Below, piece by piece: positions 4,947 through 36,545 of a stretch of DNA of 64,000 nucleotides (positions are counted from its first letter, which is position 1; every line of letters starts with the position of its first letter). Position numbers and translations under genes: made by a program. The notes beneath the pieces are model-generated. The model was not told where the DNA came from. It ran no database searches and saw only the letters and a list, made by a program, of their open reading frames with translations. Source of the stretch: Deltaproteobacteria bacterium (GTDB lineage Bacteria > Desulfobacterota > Binatia > UBA1149 > CAITLU01); contig JACRCR010000109.1 of NCBI GenBank assembly GCA_016218925.1, forward strand, positions 42,053 through 106,052. The letters run 5' to 3'.

Positions 4947-4964
4947 CGGCGCCGCTGCCAGTCT

Positions 4965-8790: not shown

Positions 8791-8938
8791 ACGGTCGGTC
8801 TAGCTTCGGAAACGCCGCCGTCGCGTGCTAGGGTGCCGGCGCGTGTTCGGGTTCCCCGTGTTGCGCAGTATGGAGGGTCGGCGCTGTGTCGCCGCTCGCC
8901 GAAGTGACGGGAGCCGAGCCCGCCCGAGAGGTTGATCC

Positions 8939-9766: not shown

Positions 9767-9822
9767 ATGTCGACGGGGACGGGTCGAGGTACGCCGCGGC
9801 GGGCCTCGCGCGGGAACTGGCA

Positions 9823-12062: not shown

Positions 12063-12119
12063 GATGAACGGCGGCGTCGCCCCGACATCCGCACGGGCGG
12101 GCCGAGCGCCGGAGGCGGC

Positions 12120-13685: not shown

Positions 13686-13694
13686 CATCCGCGC

Positions 13695-14663: not shown

Positions 14664-14686
14664 AGAGCGCTGGCCTGAGAGAGGCG

Positions 14687-16153: not shown

Positions 16154-16206
16154 GATGGCCGGCGTCGTGCCAAGTCCGTCGCGGCGCGACGCGTGGGAGA
16201 GCTGAG

Positions 16207-17250
16207 ATGGCACGTGGCACCGGACTGGTTTCTTCGAGGGTGGCCGCGATGCACGGCTACACTCCGGGCGAGCAGCCGCAGGCCGGGCGCCTGATCAAGC
16301 TCAACACTAACGAGAATCCCTATCCGTGCTCGCCGCTGGTGGCGGGCGCCATCGCCGACGAAGCGCGCTCGTTGCAACTCTACCCCTCGCCGAACGCCGA
16401 CGCGCTGCGGGCCAAGGCCGCACAGGTGTACCGTGTGGCGCCTGAGCAGGTGCTGGTCGGCAACGGCTCCGATGAAGTGCTCGCGATGATACTGCGCGCC
16501 TGCGTGCTCGATGGCGACGCGGTGGCGTACGCAGTGCCCACCTATTCGCTCTATCGCACGCTGGCGCAGTCGGTCGGTGCGCGGGTGGTGGAGATTGCCG
16601 CCGACGGCTCCGCGATACCACGCGGCGTGGCCGATGCGCGTGCGCGCGTGACGTTTGTCTGCACTCCCAACTCGCCGACCGGCCGTGCGATCGCGCTCGA
16701 TGCCATCGCCGAGTTCGCACGCAGCGCGGACGGCGTGGTAGTGGTCGATGAGGCTTACGCCGATTTCGGCACCGCCACCGCGCTGACGATCCTGGCCGAT
16801 CACCCGAACATGGTCGTGACGCGCAGTTTCTCGAAGTCGTTCTCGCTGGCCGGGCTGAGGCTCGGGCTGGCGTTCGGACACGCGGACTTTCTCGCCGAAC
16901 TGCTCAAGGTGAAGGACTCGTACAACATCTCGCGCCTGGCGATCGCTGCCGGGGTCGCCGCGCTCGACGACTACGCATGGATGCAGAGCAACGTCTCGCG
17001 GGTGCGCGCGACCCGGGCTCGTGTCACCGCGCGGCTTCGCGCGGCGGGATTTCGCGTGGAGGATTCGAGCGCGAATTTCGTGTGGGTGGACTGCTCGAGC
17101 GCCGGTGGCGGCAGGCCGGTCTACGACAAGCTTCGCGCGGCGGGCGTGCTGGTGCGCTACTTCGACGTCGAGGGGCTGCGCGGCGGGATTCGCGCGAGCA
17201 TCGGGACGGATGAGCAGATGGACGTTATGCTGGCGGTGCTCGGGGGGTGA
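16207..17250 (+). CDS. hisC: histidinol-phosphate aminotransferase
   Basis: Class-II aminotransferase: 'LNTNENPY', PLP-Lys region 'TRSFSKSFSLAGLRLG'. Confidence 0.85.
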   Translation: MARGTGLVSSRVAAMHGYTPGEQPQAGRLIKLNTNENPYPCSPLVAGAIADEARSLQLYPSPNADALRAKAAQVYRVAPEQVLVGNGSDEVLAMILRACVLDGDAVAYAVPTYSLYRTLAQSVGARVVEIAADGSAIPRGVADARARVTFVCTPNSPTGRAIALDAIAEFARSADGVVVVDEAYADFGTATALTILADHPNMVVTRSFSKSFSLAGLRLGLAFGHADFLAELLKVKDSYNISRLAIAAGVAALDDYAWMQSNVSRVRATRARVTARLRAAGFRVEDSSANFVWVDCSSAGGGRPVYDKLRAAGVLVRYFDVEGLRGGIRASIGTDEQMDVMLAVLGG

Positions 17251-17348
17251 GGGGTGGGAGATCGGCGGATTTTGTCGCGTAGTACCGAGGCGCAGCGACG
17301 AGGTAGTCACGAGAGAGGCGGCGCTGGTCCCGGCGCCAGCGGCCGCCG

Positions 17349-17450
17349 TTGGAGCGAACGCACTCTTGGTTCAACCGGTTCCGCAAGCTAGCGATGCGTT
17401 GCGAAGAGAAGCCGGAGAAATACTCGGCCTTCATGCAATTTCGCCGCCGT
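17349..17450 (+). pseudogene. C-terminal remnant of an IS5-family (IS4/IS5 DDE) transposase
   Basis: 'ERTHSWFNRFRKLAMRCEEKPEKYSAFMQF' matches the conserved C-terminal signature ERTxxWxxRFRRLAxxYE...Y.AF of IS5-group transposases. Only about 34 codons survive, and they abut hisC. Confidence 0.45.
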
Positions 17451-17548
17451 CATCATTACGCTCACGCCCTTGGGATAGGCTCTTCGTGCAACGCGACGTC
17501 CCGTGTTTCTATCGCACCGTTAGCCAGAGCTGGATCGTCCGTGAGCAC

Positions 17549-19069
17549 TTACGACATATCTTGGCCGGCCTCAGTCCATGGGGTCTCCCGTTTGAAAGCG
17601 AGGCAGAACATTAGGTTCACGACGATGATTGCCATGGCACTAAACACGGTAATCGTGTCATTCTGAACCCAGTTCCCGTAAACAAATGGCACAAGCCCGA
17701 TGAGCGAGGCCGTGATGCCCCAGAAGGCGCCCTTGGCGCTCAGGCGGTCCCAGCAGACACTCAACACGGTTGGCACGGCGAAGCATGAGGCGACACCATT
17801 GAAAATCCACCACAGGCGGTCCAAGGAGAACAGGTGCTGAACGATCAAAGCCGTGATAAGCCCCAAGGCCGCAATTCCATACATCGCCGTGCGAGAACGT
17901 TTCACTGACAATGCGTCCAGGCGATCCTTGTCCTTCGTGTCCTTGGCCGTCAGAGGCAATTGAAGCCTTTCCCTCCTGAGCAACTCTCTCTCAGCCTCGG
18001 TCAGGGGCGCCATGTCGATGGCATAAAGCGACGCTGCCGCGCACAAAGCCGAATCGAGAGTGCTCTCGAGTCCGGACAGAAGGATCACAACGAAAAGCAG
18101 CGCGGCCCATAACGGAAGAAGCTTGACAACAGTCGCCACACCGATCATCGGAAGCCCGACGCCTTGAGGAAGGGCGATTCCCATCTCCGGGTTGGCGGCG
18201 ATGAAGCCAAGCACCGAAAGCGCGATCGGCACGATACCGAACAGGAGGCCTCCTACGACGAAAGCAGGGACCAAGTGTTCTCTTCTAATCGCGAAGCTCC
18301 GCTGCCAATACTGCTGATCGGAAATCGATCCTGCAATCAGTCCGATCGATGTCACAATTCCAAAGGAGAAGGCAACTTTCGGGTCGAGCACATTCCTATT
18401 CTGCGCGAGACCGCCGAGCCCCGCCTCAATGGAATTCAGACCGGCGACCCAGATTACCCAAGGGATGATCACAAAGATTCCCACGAGTATGAAAGCCATC
18501 TGCAGGAAGTCCGTTACGATCGAGGCCCTGAGTCCAGAGATGAGGGAGTAGGCCAAGCCGACGGCCAGCAGCAGGAACATGAGGAAGTTGAGCGGAATGC
18601 CGGTGAGGAAATTAAGCATCATCCCACCGACGAAGATTTGAACGGTCACGGCCATGATCTGGTACCAAATGTATGGAACCATATAGATCGTGTGAAGTCG
18701 CTGGTCGCAGAATCGGTGGCGGATCCAGTCCGGCAGCGTGTAGCCGCCGGGGATCTTGTTTCGAACACGCGGCGCTAGCCACGCAAAGACCACCAGCGCA
18801 AGAATGTTCGGCGCCGTAAACCAGAAGATGCCAGGCAGGCCCAATTCATACGCCTTTTGCACGCTCACGAAAAGCGCTGGGGCCCAAATCCAGGATGCGG
18901 CGATGCTTGGTGCCGCGAGGACCCAATGCACATCGCGGCCAGCGACCAGGAAGCCCGCTTGAGTCTTGGTCCATCTCGCGTCGCGAGAAGCGAGCCACGT
19001 CACCAGGATCATGACGATGCCGAAGAGTCCGATTAGAAGATATCCGACACCCTGCGAAACTACGTTCAT
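17549..19069 (-). CDS. sodium:solute symporter (SSS/SSF) family transporter
   Basis: About 13 TM helices. SSS N-terminal signature 'FLVAGRDVHWVLAAPSIAASWIWAPALF...YTLPDWIRHRF'. Its ATG overlaps the upstream gene's stop (ATGA). Confidence 0.8.
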   Translation of the reverse strand: MNVVSQGVGYLLIGLFGIVMILVTWLASRDARWTKTQAGFLVAGRDVHWVLAAPSIAASWIWAPALFVSVQKAYELGLPGIFWFTAPNILALVVFAWLAPRVRNKIPGGYTLPDWIRHRFCDQRLHTIYMVPYIWYQIMAVTVQIFVGGMMLNFLTGIPLNFLMFLLLAVGLAYSLISGLRASIVTDFLQMAFILVGIFVIIPWVIWVAGLNSIEAGLGGLAQNRNVLDPKVAFSFGIVTSIGLIAGSISDQQYWQRSFAIRREHLVPAFVVGGLLFGIVPIALSVLGFIAANPEMGIALPQGVGLPMIGVATVVKLLPLWAALLFVVILLSGLESTLDSALCAAASLYAIDMAPLTEAERELLRRERLQLPLTAKDTKDKDRLDALSVKRSRTAMYGIAALGLITALIVQHLFSLDRLWWIFNGVASCFAVPTVLSVCWDRLSAKGAFWGITASLIGLVPFVYGNWVQNDTITVFSAMAIIVVNLMFCLAFKRETPWTEAGQDMS

Positions 19070-22000
19070 TTTGCGCGCTCCTTTCGCTTGGTCGCGAGGG
19101 TTCCAAATCCATCCCGGAAATTTGCGATCTCCGTTTCTCGGCGGGTGAGCGCCGTTAACTCTGCGTCGGATAGTGATCTGCAGAGTCGGAAGCCCACGTC
19201 TGGGTTCGTATTCTGCGGAAACAGCCCTATCCCATAGTCGAAGGCGAAGCTGCGCTCACCCAAGTATGATGTGGCCCCGAGAATTGCTCGTCGCCCGTGG
19301 CTTCGTCCGGGGAAGTCGTGACACCATTCCTTGACGTTCCCCATCATGCCCGATGTGCCGAACGGGCCGAACGGTTCAGAGAGCACTGGAACATGCTCCT
19401 TTGCCATGCCAAGGAGCACTTCCTTGTAGACGCTCCGCCACGACATAAGCCACTGCCACAACGAGTCGCTAGCGGGCTCGGACGCGCCGGATTGGAGCGT
19501 AGCACACCAGCGATCTAAGTCGCTTTCTGGAAGAATCAGCGGGTACAGCTCCCATGGGTACGATACGTCGAGCCGCCCTCCGCGAGCTGCCCACGACCAC
19601 TCGTGAACTGCCGGAAGCCGGTAGCCTCCTCCGAACGCAGAGTAGTCGTCACGTGCGTCGCTAGCCGCCGGTTCTGTGTCCTCGGCGAAGTAACGAGGAT
19701 ATACGCACGCTAGTGATGGTTCGCATTGCGTCAGCCAATCACAGAACGCGGCACAGGCGTACCAGCTGACATACACGACCGGATGTCTGTACTGAGTGGC
19801 GAGTGGCCGATGCCTTGGATCCAGCGCAGAAGGCATCTCTTCCCAGAAGTAGAGATGGTACTCGTTGGTGAACTTGGCAAAACGAGGCCGGCTGTTTGGT
19901 CGAGCACCTCCTGCAATCGTGACATTCTCAACGCGCCAGCCGTTACCTTCCTTAGAGCTCAAGAACGCCAGATAGTCTTCGTTGGTGATTTCTCGTTCAC
20001 CGATTAGGAACGGACGGTTCAGTTCGGGTGGCATTCCCACCTGGCTCTCCGCCAGGAAACTCGGCGCTGCTTCCGCAACTGGCGGGGGCATGAGCACCAT
20101 CTCGTATCTTTCGAGCCGATTGGGGCCGCGTATAATTGCTTCGACGTCCCGTCCCCACCACGGATCTATCGCCGCTCGCTCGGCACCGGAAAGCAATCCC
20201 ATCGCATCTAGGTTGTGGCCGAGAAAGCGAAGACAGGAGGAGAACACAGAAAGGTCACGGCGAGCGGCGCAGTCAACCAGCTTGCGTCTCGCCAGATCGG
20301 CCAGCGCCTGGGGGCCGCGGCCAGCTGGCCCCAGGTCGATATCAGCCAGGAGATCTCTAAGGATGCCGGCCGCCGCCAGACCAAGGGGGACGTCGCCGAG
20401 CGCTCTGAGCCGGTCTATGACAGGGGACGACTTCTGGTCTTCGTTGGGTAGCGGGACCTGGACTGCTCGCTTGAGATTGACAGCGACATGCCTCGCCAGC
20501 AGGAAGGCGCCGCTGACCGAAGTCGCTCCCGCTGGCGCGATAAAATGCGCGGTCGCTACAAGCGCTCTTGCGCGAGTCGTATCTTCGCCTCGCTCGCTAC
20601 CCTCATCGATGGCTTCCACGGCCTCCTCACCGACCTGAGGGAAGAATTGCGACGCCTCGGAGTCGTTCGGCCTGACCGCGAAACGGAGGGCCGCGACACT
20701 TTCCGGATCTTCATTTCCGGCCAGTTCCAGGTTCGTTTCGCGCATCCGACCGTGACGAGTGCCGAGCGGGGCCACCTCAAGGAGCGTATGCGTTTGCAGA
20801 TCGGTTCGAACGGCCTCAACGTCGAGGCCGTAACGGTGCGAAATGTGAGCTGGGATCCCGTCCATACTAACGAGTTCCGTTCCCCGCGCGGCGAGATGCC
20901 AGACCAACTCGCCAAGGAGTTCGACCCGCTCGTTTGTCCCGACCCGAATCACCGCGCCAGTGGATCGTGTATACAAGTCACGGGCCTTGCCGAGCTGGAT
21001 GTTGTAGTCGACCACCGCGCCAACAAGTGCCGCAGCAAGCAACTCCGCTGGACGCGGATCAGTGGCGGACCGCGCGGCATGGTCTACCATCGCCGCCAGG
21101 AGTGCGGGGGATCTCGAACAGATCTTCACTGCTTCAAGTAGCGCTTCCGTACACGGGTTCGCACCCGCGGGTTCAGGACCTGCGGCTGGCTTCAGGAACT
21201 TACCGAGACGCTGGGCTGCTTCTGCACTTTCCTGCTCGGCCGCCACGACCGAGAGGTATGCCGATACGGACTTCCGACCAAATGGCAGGAGAGCAACGAT
21301 CTCAAAGGCGCTCGATACGGAAACGCTCGGCCAAACCTCGGCTGCGAGAAGGCGGTCTATCGACCCAAAATGCGTAGCCCTGCATGCGGTGATGAAACGG
21401 GCGCCGAGCGGCAGCGCTGAACATATTCGCTGTAGGAGTTCGATCGCGTCTCCTTCATCTCCACGGGTGATGTGGCCAACCTCTTCGAAACCGTCGATGC
21501 AGAGAGTCATGTGGCCTGCAGCAATGAATGCCTCTACAAGCCTCGCATCCCACAAGAAGCGCGCGGTCGGATATTCCCTTAGCACTGCGTCCGGGAAAAA
21601 TGGGACCGACGTGCCAAAGGCTCCGAGGTGCGCCCGTTCCTCACGCAAGTCGAAGAAGAACGCAGGTCCGTAGAGCCAAGGGGCACGCTGATGACAACTG
21701 AAAATCTGTTCGCAGAATCGGAACAGCTGCCACGTCTTGCCGCTTCCCCGCTCGCCCAAAAGAAGCACAGGGTGCCGCTTGAGGTCGGCCCGCGCCCAAT
21801 CCTTGAAGTATTCCCCAGCCGAAATCTCGCTCTGTGGAGGTGTGCCGCCGCCGTCTGGCGTATGTACCACACGCAGGAGGCGATCCTGAAAACGCGTCTG
21901 GTACTTGGATTGGTTAAAGTCGCGCCGAGCTTTTCCGAAGACAAGCGCCGGCAGTCCGTCTGGGACGGCGCAGAGCAGCCGGAACAGCTGCGAGAAGTCA

Positions 22001-22323
22001 AGGACTTCCAATCGCTCCCCGGCCGACCGCAGATTCCCGAATCGGGAAGGGTCGCAGGCGATCAAGACGCGATCCGCGTTCGAAGCGCCAATAAACGCGA
22101 GAATGCCCGGGACAGCTCCTTCTATCGGCTGGCTCTCAAGGAGCAAGATCTCTTCGGTCAGCCTCTTCGTGAGTCCGGTGGTACACAGGCGGAAACCTTG
22201 TAGGCCTCCCGCCAGAGGGGAGTCCTTAAGGCCAAGTGGAAGTATTGTGCTCGACCCGAGGCGAAGTGCTGGGTGACCGAGCACTTCGCAGACCAGAGGG
22301 GTCACGTCAAAGTGGTCGCTCAT
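19066..22323 (-). CDS. STAND NTPase (NACHT-type P-loop) fused to a C-terminal formylglycine-generating-enzyme/sulfatase-modifying (FGE-sulfatase, SUMF1/EgtB-like) domain
   Basis: Walker A 'LLLGERGSGKTWQLFRF' and Walker B 'MTLCIDGFEEV', followed by a long helical region. C-terminal 'HPVVYVSWYACAAFCDWL', 'YRLPAVHEWSWAARGG', 'MMGNVKEWCHD', 'GFRLCRS' are FGE-sulfatase motifs. An N-terminal ~140-aa domain is unassigned. Confidence 0.8.
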   Translation of the reverse strand: MSDHFDVTPLVCEVLGHPALRLGSSTILPLGLKDSPLAGGLQGFRLCTTGLTKRLTEEILLLESQPIEGAVPGILAFIGASNADRVLIACDPSRFGNLRSAGERLEVLDFSQLFRLLCAVPDGLPALVFGKARRDFNQSKYQTRFQDRLLRVVHTPDGGGTPPQSEISAGEYFKDWARADLKRHPVLLLGERGSGKTWQLFRFCEQIFSCHQRAPWLYGPAFFFDLREERAHLGAFGTSVPFFPDAVLREYPTARFLWDARLVEAFIAAGHMTLCIDGFEEVGHITRGDEGDAIELLQRICSALPLGARFITACRATHFGSIDRLLAAEVWPSVSVSSAFEIVALLPFGRKSVSAYLSVVAAEQESAEAAQRLGKFLKPAAGPEPAGANPCTEALLEAVKICSRSPALLAAMVDHAARSATDPRPAELLAAALVGAVVDYNIQLGKARDLYTRSTGAVIRVGTNERVELLGELVWHLAARGTELVSMDGIPAHISHRYGLDVEAVRTDLQTHTLLEVAPLGTRHGRMRETNLELAGNEDPESVAALRFAVRPNDSEASQFFPQVGEEAVEAIDEGSERGEDTTRARALVATAHFIAPAGATSVSGAFLLARHVAVNLKRAVQVPLPNEDQKSSPVIDRLRALGDVPLGLAAAGILRDLLADIDLGPAGRGPQALADLARRKLVDCAARRDLSVFSSCLRFLGHNLDAMGLLSGAERAAIDPWWGRDVEAIIRGPNRLERYEMVLMPPPVAEAAPSFLAESQVGMPPELNRPFLIGEREITNEDYLAFLSSKEGNGWRVENVTIAGGARPNSRPRFAKFTNEYHLYFWEEMPSALDPRHRPLATQYRHPVVYVSWYACAAFCDWLTQCEPSLACVYPRYFAEDTEPAASDARDDYSAFGGGYRLPAVHEWSWAARGGRLDVSYPWELYPLILPESDLDRWCATLQSGASEPASDSLWQWLMSWRSVYKEVLLGMAKEHVPVLSEPFGPFGTSGMMGNVKEWCHDFPGRSHGRRAILGATSYLGERSFAFDYGIGLFPQNTNPDVGFRLCRSLSDAELTALTRRETEIANFRDGFGTLATKRKERAK

Positions 22324-24134
22324 GTCTTCTGCCCCCGTCTCCCTCTCGCAACTGTGAGTGCTGTTTCGGCGAACTTGAGGGGCAATTTGCCCGCCCGGCA
22401 GAACTGATAAACGGGGTATTCACGAAGTGACTCCAGGCTGTCACCCCGAGTCTCCCCAAGAGCCTGTGTGTATACAAGGCCCGTCCGTATCCAGGCATGG
22501 TCAAGCTCCCCGATCTCCCGTCGCCGGGCGTAGTAGCTCACCGGGTGTTCCCATGCCTGCAGGACGATGCGTGTCCCCAGTGCACCTCCGTACTGCCGCA
22601 GGATTTCCGCACAGTTCTTCGAGTAGACGTCAACGTCTCCTCGCACGTCCTGGGGCACCGAACTTCGGTTCTCATCCGGGCCGTCGCTGCGGACTGCCGA
22701 GAGCGCGAGATCGCAGGCCTTGGCGAAGGCGTCTTCACTTGTATCGTAGACCGCGGGTCCCTTGCGCTGCTCAGTGGTGGACTTCAGGCAGCGAAGCACG
22801 AGGAACAGGAACCACGGATCGCCTCCGCTGTATTCGTCGAGCAAGGCGAGGGTCGCAGGAGCAGCGGGGGCTCCCAGAAAGAGCCGCAGTAATTCGTCAA
22901 GCTCGGCTTGAGACAGGGGAGGAATTCTCAAGACGGCGTGCCTGACGAACAAAGGCTCTGTCGCTCGGTCTATCGGGAGATCGTGCGCGGCTAGTAGCAG
23001 GCCGAGTTGCGGGCAATCGTCTGGCTGACGTTCAAGCCGCTGCCGAAGCGCGCCGAGGCCTTCCCAGAGGTGGTGGCGTGGGCTGTCGTCTCCGTTAATA
23101 GCTTCCTCGACTGTGTAGAATGGCAGAAAGACGGTGATTCTATTTGTAATCCCCGATGCCGTCGCGGCGTTGCTCAGGAAGGAGAGGAAATCACGGATGC
23201 AATCCCAGTGCTCTTGGTGCAGCCGGGCGTCTCTAAGATAGGAGCGCGCGAAGCTTGCCGGATTACCAACCATCTCGGGCGTGAAGATCCCCGGCAGAAA
23301 TCTACCAGTCGTTTGCTTCAGTCCGCTAGCTGCTACGAAGGCGAGAGATGCGAATAGGCAGTCGAGAGCCGCAAGTGCGGGCGGCGGAATGGTCAAACAT
23401 TTATCAAGGATATGCAGGAAAGCCGCGCTCTCGAAGCGGACGATGACATGCTTTAGATGATCGGAGCAACGTGCCTCGATGTAGTCTTGGAATCCATCAA
23501 TGAACTCGGGGAGGTACGACTGCTTGCCGCCGACCAAGAAGACCATGCGCCGCTCCGGCAAGAGGTACTCAAGCTCGGCGAAGAGGCTGGGGCGGTGCCG
23601 CATGGCTTCGGCGAATCCGCCAGGGGTTGCAAGGTCTCCTCTCGCCGTGGGTAGCGCAGTCGATGCGAGCCAGGACTGGAGCGACGCATGGCCCGCCTGG
23701 CGGTACTGCGAGGCTGCGTGAAGCACGATCGATCGCAGGATCTCAATCGCGCCCTGTTGGGGCTTGTCCGGAAGGGCATCGACTGCATCCTTGAGGGTCG
23801 TGCCAGTGTCCGGCCATGGTGCGGGTCGGACGTTTGCAACGCTCAGCGATGAGCGTTGCGCCGCGAGCGTCTCACGCCCTACGACAAGGCGGACCAAGCC
23901 TCGGTAGCAAGCGTCCGGATCGAGTTGGGAGAACCTAAGCGGCTCTGCACCCTGGAGGCCGGAATTCCATACGTAACGTGTGGTATCTTGCACTTCCTTC
24001 GGCGCGTGTAGCTCGGGGACCCACAACCAGACGTCACAACTACTATCATCCACGTGGACGATGGAAGCATCGTAACGTGGGCTGCTCGTCGCATGAATGC
24101 CGTCGTCGTCGACTGGGGCCACGAAGAGACTCAC
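22320..24134 (-). CDS. hypothetical 604-aa protein; possible degenerate (P-loop-less) STAND-like partner
   Basis: No recognisable catalytic motif. 'FLVGGKQS' resembles but does not satisfy Walker A. 'RIPPLSQAELDELLRLFLG' resembles the STAND helical motif. ATGA overlaps at both ends. Confidence 0.55.
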   Translation of the reverse strand: MSLFVAPVDDDGIHATSSPRYDASIVHVDDSSCDVWLWVPELHAPKEVQDTTRYVWNSGLQGAEPLRFSQLDPDACYRGLVRLVVGRETLAAQRSSLSVANVRPAPWPDTGTTLKDAVDALPDKPQQGAIEILRSIVLHAASQYRQAGHASLQSWLASTALPTARGDLATPGGFAEAMRHRPSLFAELEYLLPERRMVFLVGGKQSYLPEFIDGFQDYIEARCSDHLKHVIVRFESAAFLHILDKCLTIPPPALAALDCLFASLAFVAASGLKQTTGRFLPGIFTPEMVGNPASFARSYLRDARLHQEHWDCIRDFLSFLSNAATASGITNRITVFLPFYTVEEAINGDDSPRHHLWEGLGALRQRLERQPDDCPQLGLLLAAHDLPIDRATEPLFVRHAVLRIPPLSQAELDELLRLFLGAPAAPATLALLDEYSGGDPWFLFLVLRCLKSTTEQRKGPAVYDTSEDAFAKACDLALSAVRSDGPDENRSSVPQDVRGDVDVYSKNCAEILRQYGGALGTRIVLQAWEHPVSYYARRREIGELDHAWIRTGLVYTQALGETRGDSLESLREYPVYQFCRAGKLPLKFAETALTVARGRRGQKT

Positions 24135-24778
24135 CAGGGATTCTCCTGAGGTAGGCTTGGGGTCAGTTCATAAACGGCGGCGATTTGGTCGCGCACTTCG
24201 TCCGCGAGACCAAGAAGCCGTTCCCCGTCGGCCCGGACCCGATCGATGCGGGCTGCCGCGTCTTGAGCTACGTATTGCACTGCATCGGCGGCGCCGTCGA
24301 GCTCGCCGATTTGGGTCTCGGCGTTCCTAACCCAATAGGCGAGCTGATTCCCGAGCGCAGGCTGCTGTTCATCCACGAGAGTGCCAAGCCGGGTTGCTGC
24401 GGTCGCCGCTTTCTCCAGGGTGTCGCCATAGAGCCTGATCACGTCTGCCGGCGGGACGGTCGCAGCCGTCAATGCGTGGTGGTACGCCACCCGAAGGGAC
24501 TGGAATTCACGCAAGAGCTCGCGCATCCTCGGCTTCGCGGACAAGATGTGTTCGCGCTTTTTCCGCCACGCCAGGAGGTAGTCTACGAAGCCGATCGTGA
24601 GCGCAATGCCGAAAATCTCGGTGCCCAGGTTTAGGAAAAAACCGTCGAAGAAGTGCGAGCGATCCCCGAGCCAGTAGGACGCACCGATCACGGCGAGCGA
24701 GGCGACTGTCAAAGCACATGCAAGCACGGCGCCTAGATGCGCGAAACAGGCTGTCTCGATGCGTCGCCAGAAGATCAA
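24131..24778 (-). CDS. small two-TM membrane protein with cytoplasmic coiled-coil domain (first gene of the 4-gene operon)
   Basis: Two hydrophobic helices (res ~10-32 and 48-70), then a charged helical domain. The stop overlaps the next gene's start. Confidence 0.55.
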   Translation of the reverse strand: MIFWRRIETACFAHLGAVLACALTVASLAVIGASYWLGDRSHFFDGFFLNLGTEIFGIALTIGFVDYLLAWRKKREHILSAKPRMRELLREFQSLRVAYHHALTAATVPPADVIRLYGDTLEKAATAATRLGTLVDEQQPALGNQLAYWVRNAETQIGELDGAADAVQYVAQDAAARIDRVRADGERLLGLADEVRDQIAAVYELTPSLPQENPW

Positions 24779-25171
24779 CGGTAGATTCCTTTCCGACTCA
24801 GCGTGAGTGGCGGTATTCTATGAGGGATAGAACTAGCGCTTCCCGCATGGGCGGCTGGTGTCCATGGGGTCGCGCAGAGGAGCGAGGCGAGAACTCGGTC
24901 CCGCCCGTCCAGACCGACCGTGGCCCACGATCTCGAAGACGCCGAAAGCAAGTTGAACCCTTCTTCCGGGCGACCCTGCGAGGAGAGCGCCGGAAAGTCA
25001 ATCGTGCCCCCGCGGGCTACGACTGTTCTTCGCTGCGACCTTCTGGATTCGTATGGCCCGATAGTTCCTTGAATCGGCCAGCGACCGAACGCGTTCAGCA
25101 GCGCTTCGCATCCAATAGCAGTGGCGCGCCGCGTCGTCAGCTGGATCGCTCTGGGTGCGTTCATCGACCGG

Positions 25172-26029
25172 TCACCAGTCAAGCGCAGCCGACTCCTGCC
25201 ACTTGGGTAAGCGCATCCATTTCGGAGTAATGAGCACCTCCTTTCCGTTCCTCCGCTCGGCAGCGGAATAGCGTAACGAGAAGGGATGTATCGCGGCCCA
25301 GCCGCGATACATCCGACGAACCTCGGCACAGTCGTCATACGTCAGCACCCAAGCCGCGTTACACATGGCCTTCAGTCGGGCGGCGAGCGCCGCGTGGTAG
25401 TCCGCGTCCAGCGAGTTGAGGTAGAGCGTCGGTCCCTTTTCGAAGTATGGTGGATCAACGAAGAAGAAGGTGGACTCCGGGTCGAGTCTCTCGATGAACT
25501 GGATTCCGTCGTCGCAGGACACGCGGACGCGCTCGCGGTACTCGGCGACTTTCTCGCAGCGGCGGCGGAGGTCAGACTTGTTGAACCTGGCGTCAAGCTT
25601 CCACGCACCGACCTGCGTGATCCCTCCAATAGGCCCGCCGTTCATGATGATCCCCGAGCGATTGCATCGGTTCAGGTAGAACGTCGAAAAACCTCGGCGG
25701 AGCCGGGAAACGCGACCGCTGTCTCTGTACACACTTCGCTGTCGGCGCCATTCAACCATGCTCACGCGTGTCCTCGACAGCATGTCCAGAAATGGCAATG
25801 GCCGGTTGACCAGCGTCCACCAGAAATCGTAGATGGCTGGATCTGCGTCGTTGATGTAGATCCCGTGGGTCTCTTCAAGATACAAGAGCGTAAGGGAGGC
25901 ACCAGCTCCCCCTGCGAACGGCTCCGCGATCGCTTGATGTCCCAGTCCATTGATCCTTCGTATGTTACCCAGCAGACCTGCCATCGCTGACTTCCCGCCG
26001 GGGTAGCGAAGGGGGCTTGAGGTTCTCAT
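25172..26029 (-). CDS. Dam-class (D12, alpha-group) N6-adenine DNA methyltransferase
   Basis: Motif I 'LRYPGGKSAMAGLL...EPFAGGAG' and motif IV 'FFFVDPPYFEKG'. Confidence 0.85.
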   Translation of the reverse strand: MRTSSPLRYPGGKSAMAGLLGNIRRINGLGHQAIAEPFAGGAGASLTLLYLEETHGIYINDADPAIYDFWWTLVNRPLPFLDMLSRTRVSMVEWRRQRSVYRDSGRVSRLRRGFSTFYLNRCNRSGIIMNGGPIGGITQVGAWKLDARFNKSDLRRRCEKVAEYRERVRVSCDDGIQFIERLDPESTFFFVDPPYFEKGPTLYLNSLDADYHAALAARLKAMCNAAWVLTYDDCAEVRRMYRGWAAIHPFSLRYSAAERRNGKEVLITPKWMRLPKWQESAALDW

Positions 26030-27480
26030 TCAGCGGTACCTTCTTGATCCTGCTCCAACATCAGCCGGAACAACGGTTCCGTGCGTTTCCAGAACTGCAA
26101 AATATCTCGCGCGCTGGGCAGATCGGGCTGGTGTACAAATCCATGAAGTTCGCTGATCGTGAATGGTGCCGAGGGATCGTACCGGATCGCCTTCTCAACG
26201 ATCGTGGCGCTTGCATTGGTCAGCTTGGCTTTCGCAATCCGCTTTATCTCGGGCACCAGCTGCTTCATCGTGGGCACGCCGAAAGGAAGCGTTCGGGACT
26301 CCTTCTTCTCGATTCTCTCGATGATGGCCGGAAGCTCGCCGGTGCGTTGGAGGTAGTCCAGCACCGCGAGCTCGAAGAAGACCCGAAGGAGCACGGCACC
26401 AGCGTTTGGAAACTCCTCGCGCTTGAGCCTGACCAACTCGCGCCGGATGTCGCGGAGCCGGTCATTCCCAAACCGGACTCGAAAATCGCGCGGCAACACC
26501 GTGTTGCTCGGCTGTTTAGACCTCTTCGGGGCGGAGGGCTTGGGCTTGCTCCGTGACGCAGTCACGGAGCGATCCTGGATGATATCAGCCGGCACAAACG
26601 ATCCGCGTTTCTTGGCGGGATGCTCGTCGGATTTCCAGGATCTGAAGTAATCTCGGATGTCTTCGCTGGTGTTGAGGGTTCTCGAAGATTGCCTCCCAAG
26701 TGCTACATCCATCACGAGTTTCGTGAAACCGCGAAGGAATTCTGCCTTGGTTGTCGTGCCACGAATTCCGTGTTCTGGGTGAGGTTCAACCATCAGGCAG
26801 TCGCGGCCAACAGAGGAATCAAAGACGCGCTCGATCGTTGTGAACAGCTTGGCCCGGGGATTCTCGAGCTTGGCCTTCACCTCTTCAGGGAGATCGAGCG
26901 AGCGGGCCATCTCGGCGATGGCCCGTGTTTGTCGAGCGGACTGGATGTCTGCAAGCGAGAATCCAAGTTGGTCCTGTAACTGCTCATTGGTGTAGCCCTC
27001 GGACAGCTTGTCGAGAATGAAACTCGCCCGATTTTCAGCTTGCCACGCGAGAACCGGCGTCCCTATGTGCCTACCCGCGATCTGGCGGTCGGTAGCCCGG
27101 CGACTCGGGGCGACGGTGACGGGCACACTCGCGATTTCACTCGGCACCTCAATCTGCCGGGACAGGCGCTCCAACTGCCGCTGGAAGGGCCCTTCTAGCA
27201 AGCCGGGCGCGCGGAGACCTTTCAAGGCTGCCAAGCGCCTGTTCCCCTCGACTACCACAAATCGATCATTCTCTTTGATTGCCAGAAGTGGTTCGTTCGG
27301 GAAGTAGCCGCGTGCGGCAATGCTCTTGGCCACTTCCATCGCCTTGTCGTGCTCAAATAGGTACTGAATGATCTCACGCGGCGCTCGCGCCGATGTCTCA
27401 CGGCCAAGGCGTGGGTTCTTCGCATCCAAGTGGAGACTGGCGACAGAACGCCGCACGGTGGGCCAGCTGTCGGTTGCCAT
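26026..27480 (-). CDS. ParB/Srx-like N-terminal nuclease-domain protein with unassigned C-terminal domain
   Basis: 'GYFPNEPLLAIKENDRFVVVEGNRRLAALKGL' matches the ParB box II region (GxRRxxA). ATGA overlap with the MTase gene. Confidence 0.65.
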   Translation of the reverse strand: MATDSWPTVRRSVASLHLDAKNPRLGRETSARAPREIIQYLFEHDKAMEVAKSIAARGYFPNEPLLAIKENDRFVVVEGNRRLAALKGLRAPGLLEGPFQRQLERLSRQIEVPSEIASVPVTVAPSRRATDRQIAGRHIGTPVLAWQAENRASFILDKLSEGYTNEQLQDQLGFSLADIQSARQTRAIAEMARSLDLPEEVKAKLENPRAKLFTTIERVFDSSVGRDCLMVEPHPEHGIRGTTTKAEFLRGFTKLVMDVALGRQSSRTLNTSEDIRDYFRSWKSDEHPAKKRGSFVPADIIQDRSVTASRSKPKPSAPKRSKQPSNTVLPRDFRVRFGNDRLRDIRRELVRLKREEFPNAGAVLLRVFFELAVLDYLQRTGELPAIIERIEKKESRTLPFGVPTMKQLVPEIKRIAKAKLTNASATIVEKAIRYDPSAPFTISELHGFVHQPDLPSARDILQFWKRTEPLFRLMLEQDQEGTAE

Positions 27481-27750
27481 CGGTAGTCTTCTCTCCTTGG
27501 CTAGCAGAGTAGCTCAGCTTGGTTCGCCGACGGGAGGCCTCTCACGGGGCGCCCATCGTCTCGGCGATGCGCGGCGCGTTCTCTTCGCGTCGGTCTCCAT
27601 CGCGTTGTTCGGCTCACGCCGCGGGCTCGCGCCCGTTACGCAGGGCCCGGTACCTGAGGCACCGGTCACCGCGCAACCCGAGGGCGACGCCTAGGAATGA
27701 TCCACGTGAGCATCCTTGCGCCGGTCGCCATTCTTGGGTTGCATGGTGGC

Positions 27751-28545
27751 TCACACTTTGAAGACCGGGTGGCGTCCAAGTGGCTCGCATTCATCTGTCC
27801 ACTCGACCAGATACTCCGGCAGCCTCGTCGGCCCGCGCTTCGGAAACCGCAGGCGAAGCGCAGCACAACCCTGAATGCTGGTAAGTCCCCTCAGATCGAA
27901 CACCGCCATAGATCGGTAGACAATGAGCGCTACGTCGAGGGCGGCAACCCCCGCGACGAGTATCAGCAAGGCTTTCCTCGGCAAAGGCTCTACGACTACA
28001 AGGGAGATAAGGAGGATCTCAGCGAAGAAGGAGGCGAACGTCACGTAGACGAGTGCGCGTGGGAGGTGCGGGCGCGGCTGCGTCTCAACATGGGTGCATT
28101 CGAGTAGGTGAAGCGCAGTCTCCCAAGGGACATCACTCCGTCGGCACGCCTCGGTTAGTGGAGTCGTGTCGACCGCAACGCCGGCAACCGAGAGTCGCTT
28201 ATAGTCAAGTCCGATCACAAAGGCCGCCTTGCGATTGCGTGCCCGCGCGCGGTTCAAGATCACTAGCGACGAAGAAACAAGGACGAGCAGCGGAACAAGA
28301 TAGAAGAGCCCGGGCGAGACAACAGTTCCTGTCGCAGGCGTACCGCGGGCGAGGACGCATAATGCGAGCGCGGGAGCAGTGATCCCGGACGTGAACAGTT
28401 GCAGCTGCCAATGCACATCCTCGGCCGTTTCGCCGACCAACCTCATGCATTCAGCTCCATCCTCCCGCTCCCATTTCATCGGTTTGACTTCCATCGGCTC
28501 TCCGCCTCTCGCAGGACATTCGCCTTCGCCACCAATAACGTCCAT
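27751..28545 (-). CDS. hypothetical integral membrane protein (3-4 TM)
   Basis: Hydrophobic segments only; the start is uncertain. Lower-GC island context. Confidence 0.35.
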   Translation of the reverse strand: MDVIGGEGECPARGGEPMEVKPMKWEREDGAECMRLVGETAEDVHWQLQLFTSGITAPALALCVLARGTPATGTVVSPGLFYLVPLLVLVSSSLVILNRARARNRKAAFVIGLDYKRLSVAGVAVDTTPLTEACRRSDVPWETALHLLECTHVETQPRPHLPRALVYVTFASFFAEILLISLVVVEPLPRKALLILVAGVAALDVALIVYRSMAVFDLRGLTSIQGCAALRLRFPKRGPTRLPEYLVEWTDECEPLGRHPVFKV

Positions 28546-28854
28546 TGGCAGATTGCTCTCTCGACAAAAGCTAAGGCGACCCCGAGCATCAACGCGTCGC
28601 TTCCGCGCGCTGCTTCCCGATTCCCGTCGCCGCCTTGACTACGTATCACAACGCCCTTTCTCGCTCTCTATCGGTTCCTTAGCCAACCGTTCAGCTACCC
28701 CGTCCCGCTCTACTCGCATCTCTCCGCGGTTCTCGCTCGCATCTTGCTCCACGGCGTGCCGGGACGGAAGCGCAACGGTGCGTTGTGCCGCTATGTTTGC
28801 AGGGGCGGGGAGTGGCCGCAGGCTGGGCGATCTGTCTTAGGAGAGCGGTCTGGA

Positions 28855-28935
28855 TCATTCGGAGTGACGCGCGTCACTTCCGGCGTGGAAGAAGGGCCGC
28901 CGACTGGATCCCGCGCAGGGTCGACCGCGCAGCGC
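28855..28935. repeat. ~80-bp dispersed repeat, copy 1 (copy 2 at 30948-31030)
   Basis: 'ggagtgacgcgcgtcacttccggc...gggccgccgactggatcccgcgcagggtcgaccgcg' vs 'ggagtggcgtgcgtcactttgcggc...gggccgccgattggatcccgcggaggatcgaccgcg'. The two copies flank the gldG fragment, the IS200 and the PIN fragment. Confidence 0.6.
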
Positions 28936-29660
28936 GACGGAAGGATTGAGACCGCGACCGAGCCTTCGGCGGGGCTCGTTTAGCGCGCCGGGGCCGTGGC
29001 TGAGCCCGCGAGTGTCGATCAGGGCCGTGCAACGTCTCTGTGACCGAGCGGGCCCTGGGCTGATCGACAACCGCCGACCCGCGCCACCACACGGCAACGC
29101 CGGCCAGCCAAGACGGGTTCGGGTGGTACCAATACAGAGGGGCGAAGGCAGTGTGGGCCCGACCCCGTCCGAGCAACGCCGGCGAGGCGCTAGGCGCAGT
29201 CCGATCGAGATCGGCTCTTCATCTCCGGCAAGCCGACCGATGTCGCTCTGGCGCGGCGCGTTGTGGAGTTGCTGCAGGTACTTGCTCATGCCAGGAAACT
29301 GGCGTCGCCGCAGGCGGCGAACTTGAAGCTCTTGTCCTGCGTGCCGCAGAGCACGGTGGTCGGATCGCCGCCTGCGACTGCAACGCAGATGGGTCCGGCG
29401 ATGTCGCCCGCCTTCAGTTCGGCCTCGTCCATCCCGTCGAACCTTTTCGTCGTCAGGCACCGGCTTGGGTGGAAACGGGACCAGATGCCGCCGGGCGTCG
29501 GCGGAGGTCTGCTGCAGGGCCCGCACAATGGCATCGACATCGTGGTCGTAGCGCTTGGCCAACTCCTCTCAGATCGTGCGGATCTCTTCAACGATCGGAT
29601 CTTGAGCCATGGATTGTTCTCGCCCAGCTCTTCGGGCGTGCAAGTCACCGGCGGCACGAA
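28870..29660 (-). pseudogene. decayed paralogous fragment of gldG (C-terminal ~250 codons), frame-disrupted
   Basis: Minus-strand translations 'AELKAGDIAGPICVAVAGGDPTTVLCGTQDKSFKFAACGDASFLA', 'DEEPISIGLRLAPRR' and 'WLAGVAVWWRGS' align with the GldG C-terminus at 33200-33560 ('AEMKSAEDIAGPVSVGVAGTDKASALGGADDKSFKFAVFGDTSFL', 'GDEELISIAPRVV', 'LAGIAVWWRRS'). They are split across frames. Confidence 0.65.
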
Positions 29661-29749
29661 CCCAGCAGCCCGGCATGCCCTCTCGATCGCAAGCCGAGTC
29701 GCCGCGTTGGCGATGTGCGTACGGTTCTAGGTGAGCAGCTAGCGTAAGC

Positions 29750-30400
29750 GGGAGACCCCCCGGCTATGCCGGGGAGGCAGTAGTCGTTTGACAGTTCCGG
29801 GAGTGATCCACCCAACTCCCCTTCGTGAGCCGCTCAAAGCATCACGAAGAGGAGTGTTGGATGGATCAGTATCGGAACCTCAGTCCCACAAAATGGGATT
29901 GCAAGTACCACATCGTGTTCATCCCGAAGTGCCGCCGCAAGGTGTTGTACGGGACGCTGCGCCTGGATCTCGGGTCGGTGTTTCGGTCGCTCGCCGAGCA
30001 CAAGGAGAGCCGCGTAGAGGAAGGGCACTTGATGCCGGGCCACGTGCACATGCTGCTGTCGATACCGCCGAAGTACGCGGTTTCTCAGATGGTTGGATAC
30101 ATCAAGGGAAAGAGCGCGATCCACGTGGCGCGCACGTTCATGGAGCGCAAGCGCAACTTCGTGGGGCAGCACTTCTGGGCGCGCGGGTACTTTGTTTCGA
30201 CGGTCGGTCGGGACGAGACCGTGATCCGAGAGTACATCCGGTATCAGGAAGCGGAGGACAAACGGGCAGACCAGCTACAACTGTTGCCATAGAGCGCCAC
30301 CTTCAGGTGGCTCACGGTGCCGCTCGCGAGCGGCACCAATCTTAAGCCGCTTTGAGCGGCTCACGCGTTTGAAAGCCCCCGGCTTTGCCGGGGGATCGTT
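29750..30400 (+). mobile_element. IS200/IS605-family insertion sequence (tnpA-only) with subterminal hairpins
   Basis: Left hairpin 'ccccggctatgccgggg' (~29757-29775) and right hairpin 'cccccggctttgccggggg' (~30378-30396). An inverted 16-mer 'gtgagccgctcaaagc'/'gctttgagcggctcac' sits at both ends. Confidence 0.8.
29861..30292 (+). CDS. tnpA: IS200/IS605 family Y1 (HUH) transposase TnpA
   Basis: 'KWDCKYHIVFIPKCRRKVLYG', HuH 'HVHMLLSIPPKYAVSQMVGYIKGKSA', catalytic Tyr region 'YIRYQ'. Confidence 0.85.
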   Translation: MDQYRNLSPTKWDCKYHIVFIPKCRRKVLYGTLRLDLGSVFRSLAEHKESRVEEGHLMPGHVHMLLSIPPKYAVSQMVGYIKGKSAIHVARTFMERKRNFVGQHFWARGYFVSTVGRDETVIREYIRYQEAEDKRADQLQLLP

Positions 30401-30608
30401 ACTCCAGTCCATTGATTGCAGCTACTACGATGTGAACGGCATCTACCACCGCCTTGGGTGGTAGCGCGTCCGCGACGAGGAGGCCTCGCGCCAAGTCAGT
30501 GACAGAATCGGTCACTTGGAGCAGAGGGAACCCCATCAGGGCGGCTTTTCGGTTCGTGGCAGCGCTTGCGTCCCTTCCGTCGGCTTCTTGCAAGACCGCT
30601 CCGGACAC
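30399..30608 (-). pseudogene. possible truncated PIN-domain (VapC-like) gene ending at the IS200 right end
   Basis: 'LVADALPPKAVVDAVHIVVAAINGLE' resembles the PIN 'D..IAATA..G' core. The ORF stops 1 bp from the IS end. Confidence 0.35.
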
Positions 30609-30947
30609 GAAGATATGGAAACGATCGCGGCGTTCCCGCCACTCGACGGTGAGCTCTTGGTGTGGGCGGCGATGACGAGGTCGCGACTCTGGCGTCCCGT
30701 CAGGTAGTTGACGATCGTTGTTTCAAGATAAAACCCTTGGTTTCAGCTCCGTCCCGTGCGAGCAAATCGCGTGCTTAGCGTTCGCCGAACCCTCGAGTTC
30801 CAGGGCCCGGTCAATTCTCATATGCCCGCGACTCCAGTTCGAATATTGGTCCGCGCCGCGTCGCGACGGAAACGCAGCGGCGTGTGGTGCTGGGGCTTTC
30901 GCTAGGGCAGGGGGCGGGGCTACGTATTCTGCGAGAGCGGCCGGAGG

Positions 30948-31030
30948 ATTCGGAGTGGCGTGCGTCACTTTGCGGCCAGCGGTAGGGCCGCCGATTGGAT
31001 CCCGCGGAGGATCGACCGCGGAACGCGGCG
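30948..31030. repeat. ~80-bp dispersed repeat, copy 2
   Basis: See copy 1 at 28855-28935. Confidence 0.6.
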
Positions 31031-31367
31031 GGCATCCGTACGGGACAGGGGGCGACGCAGCTGTCTTCGCTGCGGCCGGCTTCCATGCTGCCGGAGGTCG
31101 TTTATCCGAACACCCGGTCCAAGGTGGAAAGTTCCGCGCGGGCCAGTGGCGAGGCGAGCGCTTACCGTGTCCCGGCGGCGGCGGCTGGCGTGTCAGCGCT
31201 CAAGTCGCGGCTCTTACACCCACGCCCGCCGGAAAGACAGCCGTCCATCCGTGCTCAACTTCTCCGTCGGCTGGCGTATCCGTTGCGACCGGTGCCGTTC
31301 GCGCGGTACAAACTTTGTGGGGAACATCTCCTTCCTGACACGCGATTCAGTCTAAGGGACTCGACCA

Positions 31368-31625
31368 ATGAGAATCGCGCAGCTCCGGCCGGAATCGAAT
31401 TGCATACTGTCGATCATCGCGGACGATGGGCGTATCGGCAAGTTCGACGTGAGTCCGTATCTCGAGTACGAGGCGTTCGAAGGTCTTCGTGACAGCGCCG
31501 AATTCGCGAAGGTGGTCAACGGCGGTTACTTCGTCGAATGGGAATGTGGTGCCGACCTCTCAGCTGACACCATCGAGGCGCGCTGGCAGGTAGTCGGGCG
31601 AGCAGCTCCGCAGACGCCTACCTGA
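31368..31625 (+). CDS. DUF2442-family small protein (usually paired with DUF4160; partner not found)
   Basis: About 85 aa. 'IADDGRIGKFDVSPYLE...FAKVVNGGYFVEWECGADLSADTI' fits the DUF2442 pattern. Confidence 0.55.
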   Translation: MRIAQLRPESNCILSIIADDGRIGKFDVSPYLEYEAFEGLRDSAEFAKVVNGGYFVEWECGADLSADTIEARWQVVGRAAPQTPT

Positions 31626-31666
31626 CCGTTTGAGGCAGACCGCTGAGATACTCTCAGCCGCTGCAC

Positions 31667-33160: not shown

Positions 33161-33199
33161 CCCGTGCGCAAACGCGGTCGCGATGCCGCGGCATCCGGC

Positions 33200-34765: not shown

Positions 34766-34776
34766 TGTCGTTCTCC

Positions 34777-36313: not shown

Positions 36314-36545
36314 TCGTTGTTTGGTCCGCTAGGCCGATTGGCCCGCCGCCCTGCCTTGCAAGGCATGGTCTGCGCTAACAGCGCGGCCATCTAAACACGG
36401 CTAGGACGGGAGTCAACGCCACGGTATTCGAGGTCGCGCGGCCGCGACCGAAGAAAGGCCGCCGGCGTGTCCTGCGCCGCGAAGGCCGTCCGTCCGGTAC
36501 CTTGGGTTGGTATGGACGGCCGGCCTTCGCGCGCGGATCCCTTCG

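Follow-up and report, generated by a model that had tools for sequence, protein, structure and literature searches.

We analysed a 64,000-nucleotide stretch of contig JACRCR010000109.1 (assembly GCA_016218925.1, Deltaproteobacteria bacterium), which we refer to as the window, and focused on the DNA between hisC and the convergent DUF4340-gldG-gldF-gldA operon. These two core flanks are separated by an island that begins after the hisC stop codon, which ends at 17250, and extends to the DUF4340 stop codon at 31667. All large genes of the island are on the minus strand. They include two cassettes: an operon of four genes, encoding the proteins p215 and p604, a NACHT-like STAND NTPase with an FGE-sulfatase domain (NACHT/FGE) and a sodium:solute symporter (SSF) family membrane protein, and a gene pair resembling the phage-defence system PD-Lambda-5. 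The remainder contains insertion sequences (IS), a broken toxin gene, and fragments related to the gld operon (Table 1). An initial annotation, made from the sequence alone, had described the region as a horizontally acquired island that had undergone several insertion and deletion events.

Composition of the island and the same site in related genomes

The base composition of the island differs from that of its flanks. The fraction of guanine plus cytosine (GC) is 0.607 in the island, compared with 0.679 in the left flank and 0.664 in the right flank, and the minimum among equally long (14.4-kb) windows outside the island is 0.651 (n=104). In 1-kb windows, GC was 0.607+/-0.022 inside and 0.669+/-0.019 outside the island (Mann-Whitney p=5e-8), and the 1-kb sliding profile fell from 0.67-0.68 to 0.56-0.63 directly past 17250 and returned to 0.66-0.68 after ~31700. 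The GC of third codon positions (GC3) was 0.65-0.72 in island genes, except for the gene of an IS200 element (0.80), and 0.81-0.89 in eight flanking genes. Measured against the rest of the window, the tetranucleotide distance was 0.31-0.35 inside the island and 0.11-0.21 elsewhere, placing the island at two to three times background. From these measures we conclude that the drop in GC that had been noticed by eye after the hisC stop, with a recovery near 31650, is real and sharp, although the figures given for it (70% to 55-60% GC) slightly overstated the measured change from 67-68% to 56-63%. The right third of the island was uneven, with patches of host-like GC (0.65-0.72) at 28.8-29.5 kb and 30.85-31.3 kb.

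The initial annotation had also proposed a comparison with the syntenic hisC to gldG region of related genomes. We compared five genomes, none of which belongs to the same species as the window (hisC at most 85% identical). A scan with the hisC protein, using one genome per species, yielded one close relative (L001) and several distant relatives, and two more loci, L085 and L086, were found by a metagenome scan with GldG. In L001 (CAITLU010000036.1), the hisC product is 84% identical at the amino acid level, positions 2754-11044 align to window 8889-17250 (82% nucleotide identity), and the sequence from 11118 aligns to window 31742-36432 (83% nucleotide identity). The spacer from the hisC stop to the convergent DUF4340 stop in L001 is 55 bp. 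L085, a 79.7-kb metagenome contig, was likewise collinear on both sides and has a spacer of 30 bp. In L002 (Myxococcales, hisC 55% identical) and L053 (hisC 47% identical), hisC is also followed directly by convergent DUF4340-gldG-gldF-gldA. The close relative L086 has another insert in this spacer, of ~0.8 kb (L086 2520-3326), which is a single gene for a 184-aa zinc-ribbon and membrane protein and has host-like GC. None of the island proteins is encoded at the L001, L085, L086, L002 or L053 loci. In this small sample the spacer has three states: empty (L001 and L085), 0.8 kb (L086) and 14.4 kb (the window).

Because hisC and DUF4340 are adjacent in both close and distant relatives, we conclude that their adjacency is ancestral and old, and that the 14.4 kb represent a gain in the lineage of the window. 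The presence of a different insert in L086 indicates that the site is variable. The DUF4340 protein of the window has a long low-complexity C-terminal tail; equally long, variable tails are present in L085 and L086, and thus the tail is native and was not made by the insertion.

We considered the alternative of an ancestral region that relatives lost through independent deletions. In favour of this explanation, only five comparators are available and none is from the same species. Against it, at least four independent and near-precise deletions would be needed, each leaving 30-150 bp, even in genomes where hisC is 47-55% identical to that of the window, and the island would still be foreign in composition and codon usage, with cargo that occurs in unrelated phyla and on mobile elements. 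We consider independent deletion extremely improbable. In contrast, empty sites are what acquisition predicts, and together with the atypical composition and the finding of the cargo in mobile contexts elsewhere they support the horizontal acquisition that had been proposed. Taken together, we conclude that 17251-31666 is, with high probability, a horizontally acquired mosaic accessory island in a variable spacer between convergent hisC and DUF4340-gldG-gldF-gldA, which was built and eroded stepwise and carries defence-type cargo.

Table 1. Features of the island, its flanks and the SSF-NACHT/FGE gene pairs (window coordinates unless another locus is named)
Feature	Position	Strand	Evidence or remark
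hisC, left core flank	16207-17250	+	Pfam Aminotran_1_2 E=8e-53; L001 alignment stops precisely at 17250
Island	17251-31666 (14,416 bp)		Missing at the syntenic site of relatives; aberrant composition
IS5-family transposase C-terminal remnant, ~31 codons	17349-17450	+	NCBIfam transpos_IS5_3 (NF033580) E=5.5e-7
SSF-family (sodium:solute symporter) membrane protein, 506 aa, last operon gene	17549-19069	-	Pfam SSF E=7e-29
NACHT-like STAND NTPase with C-terminal FGE-sulfatase/C-type-lectin-like domain, 1085 aa	19066-22323	-	FGE-sulfatase E=5e-20
p604, operon gene 2	22320-24134	-	N-terminal ~170 aa plus conserved ~400-aa module
p215, operon gene 1	24131-24778	-	Small protein, membrane-associated look by eye; 44-55% conserved in L082 and L083
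D12-class N6-adenine DNA methyltransferase, PD-Lambda-5 component B	25172-26029	-	PADLOC PDLC04018 E=5e-93
ParB-like protein, PD-Lambda-5 component A	26026-27480	-	PADLOC PDLC04017 E=3e-49 and 19 further PD-Lambda-5_A models
p264	27751-28545	-	Hydrophobic by eye; no family match
Diverged direct repeat, ~300 bp, copy 1	28670-28976		68% identity to copy 2; GC 0.68
gldG C-terminal fragment, decayed, ~last 120 codons, frameshifted	29069-29430	-	tblastn E=4e-12 to 5e-21
Small open reading frame with in-frame stop	29440-29617	-	Translation; just downstream of the VapC-like gene
VapC-like (PIN-type toxin) pseudogene	29616-30733	-	Split by IS200; one frameshift (~30655), one in-frame stop
IS200/IS605-family element, ends approximate	29746-30400	+	tnpA 29825-30292; Pfam Y1_Tnp E=6e-37
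Diverged direct repeat, ~300 bp, copy 2	30766-31081		68% identity to copy 1, indels
DUF4340 gene fragment, probable, decayed	31075-31245	-	Residues ~379-435, two in-frame stops
DUF2442 gene	31368-31625	+	Pfam DUF2442 E=1e-11; no partner gene alongside
DUF4340-gldG-gldF-gldA operon, right core flank	31667-36313	-	Collinear with L001, L085 and L086
SSF-NACHT/FGE pairs	17549-22323; L082 11836-16591; L083 2266-7047; L090 5699-10557; L091 5211-9577

Insertion-sequence, toxin-gene and gld-operon remains

The layered history that had been proposed for the island is borne out: eight or more pieces can be told apart, among them an IS that lies within a gene which was itself inserted. Of the mobility genes or remnants looked for in islands, there are an IS5 remnant at the left edge and an intact IS200 element in the right third, both of which had been recognized in the initial annotation. 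The IS5-family transposase matches only positions 221-251 of the 258 in the NF033580 profile, and the Pfam DDE_Tnp_1_2 match reaches just E=0.055. This element is not complete, with the last ~31 transposase codons remaining. The rest of IS5 is gone on the hisC side, and we therefore infer that a deletion trimmed the original left end of the island.

In the translation of the IS200 tnpA gene, the HUH motif (HVH) and the catalytic tyrosine are visible, and near-identical hairpins are located at both ends of the element (29758-29774 and 30376-30394; the right-end fold has z=-5.5). The left end also has a weak match to the IS200-derived RNA STnc490 (E=0.22). The element resembles the IS200/IS605 family in its ~150-aa Y1 HUH transposase, in its subterminal hairpins, and in having neither terminal inverted repeats nor an evident target duplication; it differs from the family in that tnpB is missing. 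A Logan contig assembled independently from the same sample (L084) was 100% identical over window 18350-29776. L084 stops exactly at the IS200 left-end hairpin (29776), and on the opposite side it breaks off within the SSF gene. The break at the IS200 left end suggests that IS200 is multicopy in this genome.

IS200 interrupts a VapC-like toxin gene between about codons 114 and 116. A VapC-family toxin from Thiodictyon matches 30730-30411 with its residues 6-111 and 29738-29616 with its residues 116-158, and because both halves of the gene align contiguously to this toxin, we conclude that the VapC-like gene is an interrupted pseudogene. Its product is 42% identical, over 94% of the length, to the product of a gene annotated as a VapC-family toxin in RefSeq, and the reconstructed protein has no PIN match in Pfam or NCBIfam. 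The initial annotation had listed a truncated PIN gene at this position. A VapC-like gene is indeed broken here, but the contiguous alignment to the Thiodictyon toxin indicates a full-length VapC-like gene that was split by IS200 rather than truncated. The small open reading frame next to it had no family match in Pfam, NCBIfam or PHROGs. At the right edge, the DUF2442 gene is an orphan, as had been described. We also observed a stable hairpin at 31635-31660 (GCTGAGA-TAC-TCTCAGC inside a longer stem; DNA fold z=-4.0), which falls in the 41 bp separating the stop codons of DUF2442 and DUF4340 and may act as a terminator of these two convergent genes.

The host-like patches of the right third contain a decayed fragment of gldG, a probable fragment of a DUF4340 gene, and two copies of a diverged repeat, all with a GC of ~0.68. 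The gldG fragment (GC 0.677), which corresponds to the C-terminal third of the gene, is 72% identical at the nucleotide level to positions 33210-33572 of the resident gldG. We compared the fragment to four gldG orthologues (window, L001, L085 and L086) and found nucleotide identities of 67-74%, whereas the orthologues are 82-88% identical to one another. Identity of the fragment to the resident copy (72.9%) did not exceed that to the L085 copy (73.8%), and in a neighbour-joining bootstrap analysis 98% of replicates placed it outside the four orthologues and none made it sister to the resident gene. With these results, a recent local duplication is unlikely, and we rejected the fragment as a recent duplicate of the resident gene. 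The earlier description of a decayed gldG fragment was therefore correct, whereas the term paralog is doubtful. As judged from ~360 bp, over which long-branch artefacts are possible, the most likely source of the fragment is a more distantly related member of the same family-level group. Alternatively, it could be an old duplicate that has decayed rapidly.

The DUF4340 fragment was absent from the initial annotation. It was detected by tblastn with the resident protein (E=3.5e-4) and the L001 protein (E=1e-3), and it has 71% nucleotide identity to 31856-31945 (E=1e-5). The order of the DUF4340 and gldG fragments is "wrong" with respect to the resident operon. Both fragments fit DNA arriving from a relative along with pieces of that relative's own gld locus.

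Each copy of the repeat sits just below one of the two gld-operon fragments. Two copies of ~80 bp (28855 and 30948) had been noticed initially; the repeat is real, but its alignment extends over ~300 bp at 68% identity, with the 80 bp as its core. The repeat has no detectable coding signal, no significant fold and no Rfam family, and no further copy was found in the related loci examined, IMG/VR or PLSDB. On comparison, the repeat does not look to be derived from DUF4340.

A mosaic of this kind could also arise by an assembly or binning artefact, in which foreign sequence was wrongly joined within the contig. The source is a metagenome-assembled genome (MAG), and L084, with breaks at 18350 and at the end of IS200 (29776), does not span the outer junctions of the island. 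Searches by exact-protein look-up with hisC, DUF2442 and SSF for independent assemblies of the outer junctions found nothing on record; L084 itself was recovered through p604. On the other hand, two erroneous joins would have had to hit an intergenic spacer of 30-55 bp exactly and to restore synteny and orientation on both sides. In addition, L084 confirms at 100% identity the internal joins of the host-like-GC gldG fragment with the lower-GC cargo, and the island holds fragments of the lineage's own gene families. We therefore think it very improbable that the island was created by misassembly or misbinning.

The PD-Lambda-5-like pair and the four-gene operon

The earlier suggestion that two candidate systems are cargo of the island is in agreement with our results, in that the two are independent cassettes, each found elsewhere in mobile contexts. 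One is a recognized defence system (PD-Lambda-5), and the other, the four-gene operon, is a candidate with no PADLOC match.

PD-Lambda-5 was reported from an E. coli prophage, is active against nearly every phage tested, and has been characterized as a compacted restriction-modification and abortive-infection system (PMC9519451). The window pair resembles it (Vassallo et al. 2022, PMC9519451; PADLOC PDLC03994-04019) in consisting of two overlapping genes on the same strand that encode a ~480-aa ParB-like protein and a ~285-aa D12 adenine methylase, both with strong hidden Markov model matches, and in having relatives that occur in prophage or mobile-element settings. Component A has a ParB-type N-terminal domain (TIGR00180 E=4e-6) and component B matches Pfam MethyltransfD12 (E=3e-10). 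Both components of the system are present, and their genes are adjacent and co-oriented with a 4-bp overlap.

We found 874 homologues of component A at E<=1e-20, and the best 120 of these 874 were 74-84% identical; the named sources among these 120 include Elusimicrobiota, Planctomycetes, Phycisphaerae and Acidobacteriota. In an acidobacterial genome (L087/L088 6001-8305), the A and B pair adjoins head genes of a Mu-like prophage and CHAT proteases, and in Elusimicrobiota L089 (6001-8312) it adjoins a type III restriction-modification system, a tyrosine integrase and a serine recombinase. From these sequence comparisons, the PD-Lambda-5-like pair looks like a highly mobile, strongly conserved cassette. 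Phage resistance has been demonstrated for the E. coli prophage system only, and the window pair differs from that system in belonging to an environmental clade that is highly conserved among the hits listed. Based on homology and context, the pair is probably a compact restriction-modification/abortive-infection system. The neighbouring p264 has no match in Pfam, NCBIfam, PADLOC or PHROGs, and elsewhere, at the loci examined, the PD-Lambda-5 cassette does not include it.

The four-gene operon is separated from the PD-Lambda-5-like pair by a gap of 393 bp. Its genes overlap by 4 bp each (24131-24134, 22320-22323 and 19066-19069), an arrangement of translational coupling. In the translation of the NACHT/FGE protein, a Walker A motif (GERGSGKT) and a Walker B motif (CIDGFEE) are visible, and the Pfam FGE-sulfatase match scores 72.7 bits against a cut-off of 23.3. 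A protein from Rhodoblastus acidophilus is a full-length homologue (30% identity, E=2e-138), and the nearest PDB sequence matches include TvpA, a variable protein of a diversity-generating retroelement. STAND/NACHT proteins with FGE/FGS sensor domains are a recognized defence class (PMC13581612; bioRxiv 2022.07.19.500537), and the combination of NACHT with an FGE/FGS domain has been classed as an "antigen receptor-type" architecture (bioRxiv 2022.07.19.500537). The window protein is like the described NACHT/STAND-FGS proteins (Kibby et al., bioRxiv 2022.07.19.500537; PMC13581612; Kaur et al. 2020, PMC7159879) in its P-loop core with Walker A and B motifs and in ending in an FGE-sulfatase/C-type-lectin-like domain. 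It differs from them in that the same polypeptide has no recognizable effector domain, and instead a separate effector-type gene (p604 or TIR) precedes it and an SSF gene always follows.

The second gene, p604, has four other close homologues among 5.8 billion proteins and no Pfam, PADLOC or PDB sequence match. An exhaustive profile search with the p604 family identified 55 relatives that share residues ~170-590. At their N-termini these relatives carry TIR_2, CHAT or calcineurin-like phosphoesterase (Metallophos) domains, and such head-swapping is a pattern typical of immune effectors. In p604 we noticed a motif resembling "PPLSxxEL", along with weak matches to Cdc6/ORC-like folds. An AlphaFold2 model of p604, built with five sequences, was poor (mean predicted local distance difference test score of 56), and its Foldseek matches to AAA+/Cdc6-ORC-like structures were not significant. 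The motif and the weak fold matches give a hint of an AAA+-type domain that is degenerate and lacks a canonical Walker A motif.

The same four genes occur in the same order in L082 and L083. In L082, the module lies in a GC trough (0.46-0.53 compared with 0.64-0.67) and is flanked on one side by genes for a MobL relaxase and a large DprA-like protein, and on the other by the gene for a type IV secretion system (T4SS) coupling protein. Between the copies of the window, L082 and L083, the SSF proteins are 80-88% identical, whereas p215, p604 and NACHT/FGE are 44-58% identical; as read from these sequences, constraint on the operon components is strongly uneven. At E<=1e-30, we found 1,098 homologues of the SSF protein. 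Mean column identity in this subfamily is 71%, as measured on 20 diverse members, and its closest copies are 80-91% identical. We examined six contexts of the SSF gene (the window, L082, L083, a JGI contig, Rhodoblastus acidophilus L090, and L091) and found it directly downstream of a gene for a 940-1085-aa NACHT/FGE-sulfatase protein in all six. The gene upstream of this pair encodes a TIR-domain protein in two contexts (Rhodoblastus acidophilus and the JGI contig) and p604, with p215, in three.

We infer a defence role for the operon from its context and its modularity. With its FGE/C-type-lectin-like domain, the NACHT/FGE STAND NTPase would detect an invader, and it would then act through p604 and the membrane protein SSF, with p604 filling a slot that would be held elsewhere by relatives bearing TIR, CHAT or phosphoesterase domains. 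We tentatively propose that the operon might represent a widespread, undescribed STAND immune type, with an invariant core of NACHT/FGE followed by SSF and an exchangeable upstream effector slot. Several observations are unfavourable to a defence role. The Pfam NACHT match (E=1.8e-4, 21.8 bits) is under the family cut-off of 26.7 bits, none of the four operon genes matched a PADLOC model, and an SSF transporter is an odd defence component, which might point to a non-immune role.

The operon could accordingly be read as a regulated uptake or signalling module in which an SSF transporter is under the control of a STAND switch, and the island would then be "defence" only in part. This explanation draws on the lack of PADLOC matches, on SSF being a bona fide and strongly conserved transporter family, and on our finding no SSF homologues in IMG/VR viral contigs. 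Weighing against it are the TIR-domain proteins that occupy the upstream slot in other copies, the TIR, CHAT or phosphoesterase heads of the p604 relatives, and the antigen receptor-type architecture of the NACHT/FGE protein. Further, the module adjoins PD-Lambda-5 in the window and sits on mobile DNA elsewhere. We consider a function unrelated to defence unlikely.

If the proposed immune type is real, a secondary transporter fold would be an obligatory partner of a bacterial NLR-like receptor, and SSF could depolarize the membrane as an executioner, or carry a small-molecule signal into or out of the cell. We searched the literature for STAND/NACHT systems with a symporter partner and found none. 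The invariant NACHT/FGE-SSF pairing with exchangeable partners, of which we found no description, is a novel lead. The linkage of NACHT/FGE with SSF and the swappable TIR-, CHAT- and phosphoesterase-type partners provide a testable hypothesis of a transporter-coupled bacterial NLR.

Assembly of the island and comparison with known islands

Parts of the order of events can be read directly. The VapC-like gene was present before IS200 inserted into it, and IS5 was beside SSF before the deletion towards hisC. We propose that the island was assembled and then eroded stepwise, with two cassettes that would have had separate histories elsewhere. In this model, IS5 would have landed beside SSF, and a later deletion towards hisC would have taken most of it. 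The VapC-like gene would have been struck by IS200, which remains intact, and the host-like-GC gldG and DUF4340 fragments of a more distant relative would have been carried in or left behind. The least certain step is entry at a permissive hotspot, which would have happened through recombination or illegitimate joining and not through a site-specific integrase; the permissive site would be the spacer of the convergent terminators. This mode of entry appears most likely because no integrase, tRNA or terminal repeat was found.

The same absences also count against our explanation of the island, as do some limits of the data. There are no tRNA genes in the window, no integrase or recombinase domains in the island open reading frames scanned with Pfam, NCBIfam and PHROGs, and no att-like, target-site or other repeat pairing the two ends of the island. 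Sliding-window identity among three taxa (window, L001 and L085) revealed no excess divergence near the junctions, and thus there is no direct trace of homologous recombination that replaced the flanks. Finally, the outer junctions at 17250 and 31666 rest on one MAG contig, with L084 covering 18350-29776 only.

An island without a recognizable integrase could be what remains of one discrete mobile element, such as an integrative and conjugative element, an integrative and mobilizable element, or a prophage, that brought in all of the cargo in a single integration and then lost its integrase and ends, with the apparent layering resulting from decay. In keeping with such an origin, the four-gene module of L082 rides a conjugative-type element (MobL relaxase and T4SS coupling protein), PD-Lambda-5-like pairs sit in prophages and in islands bearing an integrase, and the truncated IS5 shows that DNA was lost towards hisC. 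In contrast, no conjugation genes and no phage structural or replication genes were found among the island proteins in Pfam and PHROGs scans, and neither conjugation, phage and recombinase genes nor their fragments were detected among the island open reading frames scanned. The two cassettes were unlinked at every other locus examined, and the right third is pieced together from segments of host-like and of lower GC. Integration as a single element is improbable given these observations, and we favour the stepwise model.

Hotspots that lack mobility genes, with turnover by recombination at the core genes that flank them, have been documented (PMC5635113). The island is like described hotspots and defence islands (Oliveira et al. 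2017, PMC5635113; Hochhauser et al. 2023, PMC10121019) in that accessory DNA occupies one syntenic interval between core genes, the occupancy of the site varies (empty, 0.8 kb or 14.4 kb), and defence-type cargo is interspersed with the debris of IS and toxin-antitoxin genes. It also has no integrase, as in many of the reported hotspots without mobility genes (PMC5635113). It differs from reported hotspots in that the "hotspot" of the window rests on three states and five comparators in an uncultured, Myxococcota-like MAG lineage, and in that the raised recombination in flanking core genes described in PMC5635113 was not seen at this site in the comparison of three taxa.

The island itself is of an ordinary kind and brings no new principle: it is a clean, base-resolved, integrase-less insertion in a poorly sampled uncultured lineage. 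As a frame, it indicates that both cassettes are independent and horizontally moving and are not host housekeeping genes. A mobile-cassette context is the evidence usually used to nominate defence systems.

Other features were observed elsewhere in the window. Coding tandem repeats occupy 37040-39150, with ~11-13 copies of a 93-nt unit (37051-38469) followed by six copies of 105-111-nt units (38517-39148). The run aligns to L001 and L085 at only 65-81% identity and in multiple offset registers, and the array may differ between relatives. At 4727-4888, a 27-nt unit is present in five tandem copies, probably a coding repeat of nine residues. A SAM-I riboswitch is located on the minus strand at 49734-49852 (Rfam RF00162, 77 bits, E=2e-16).

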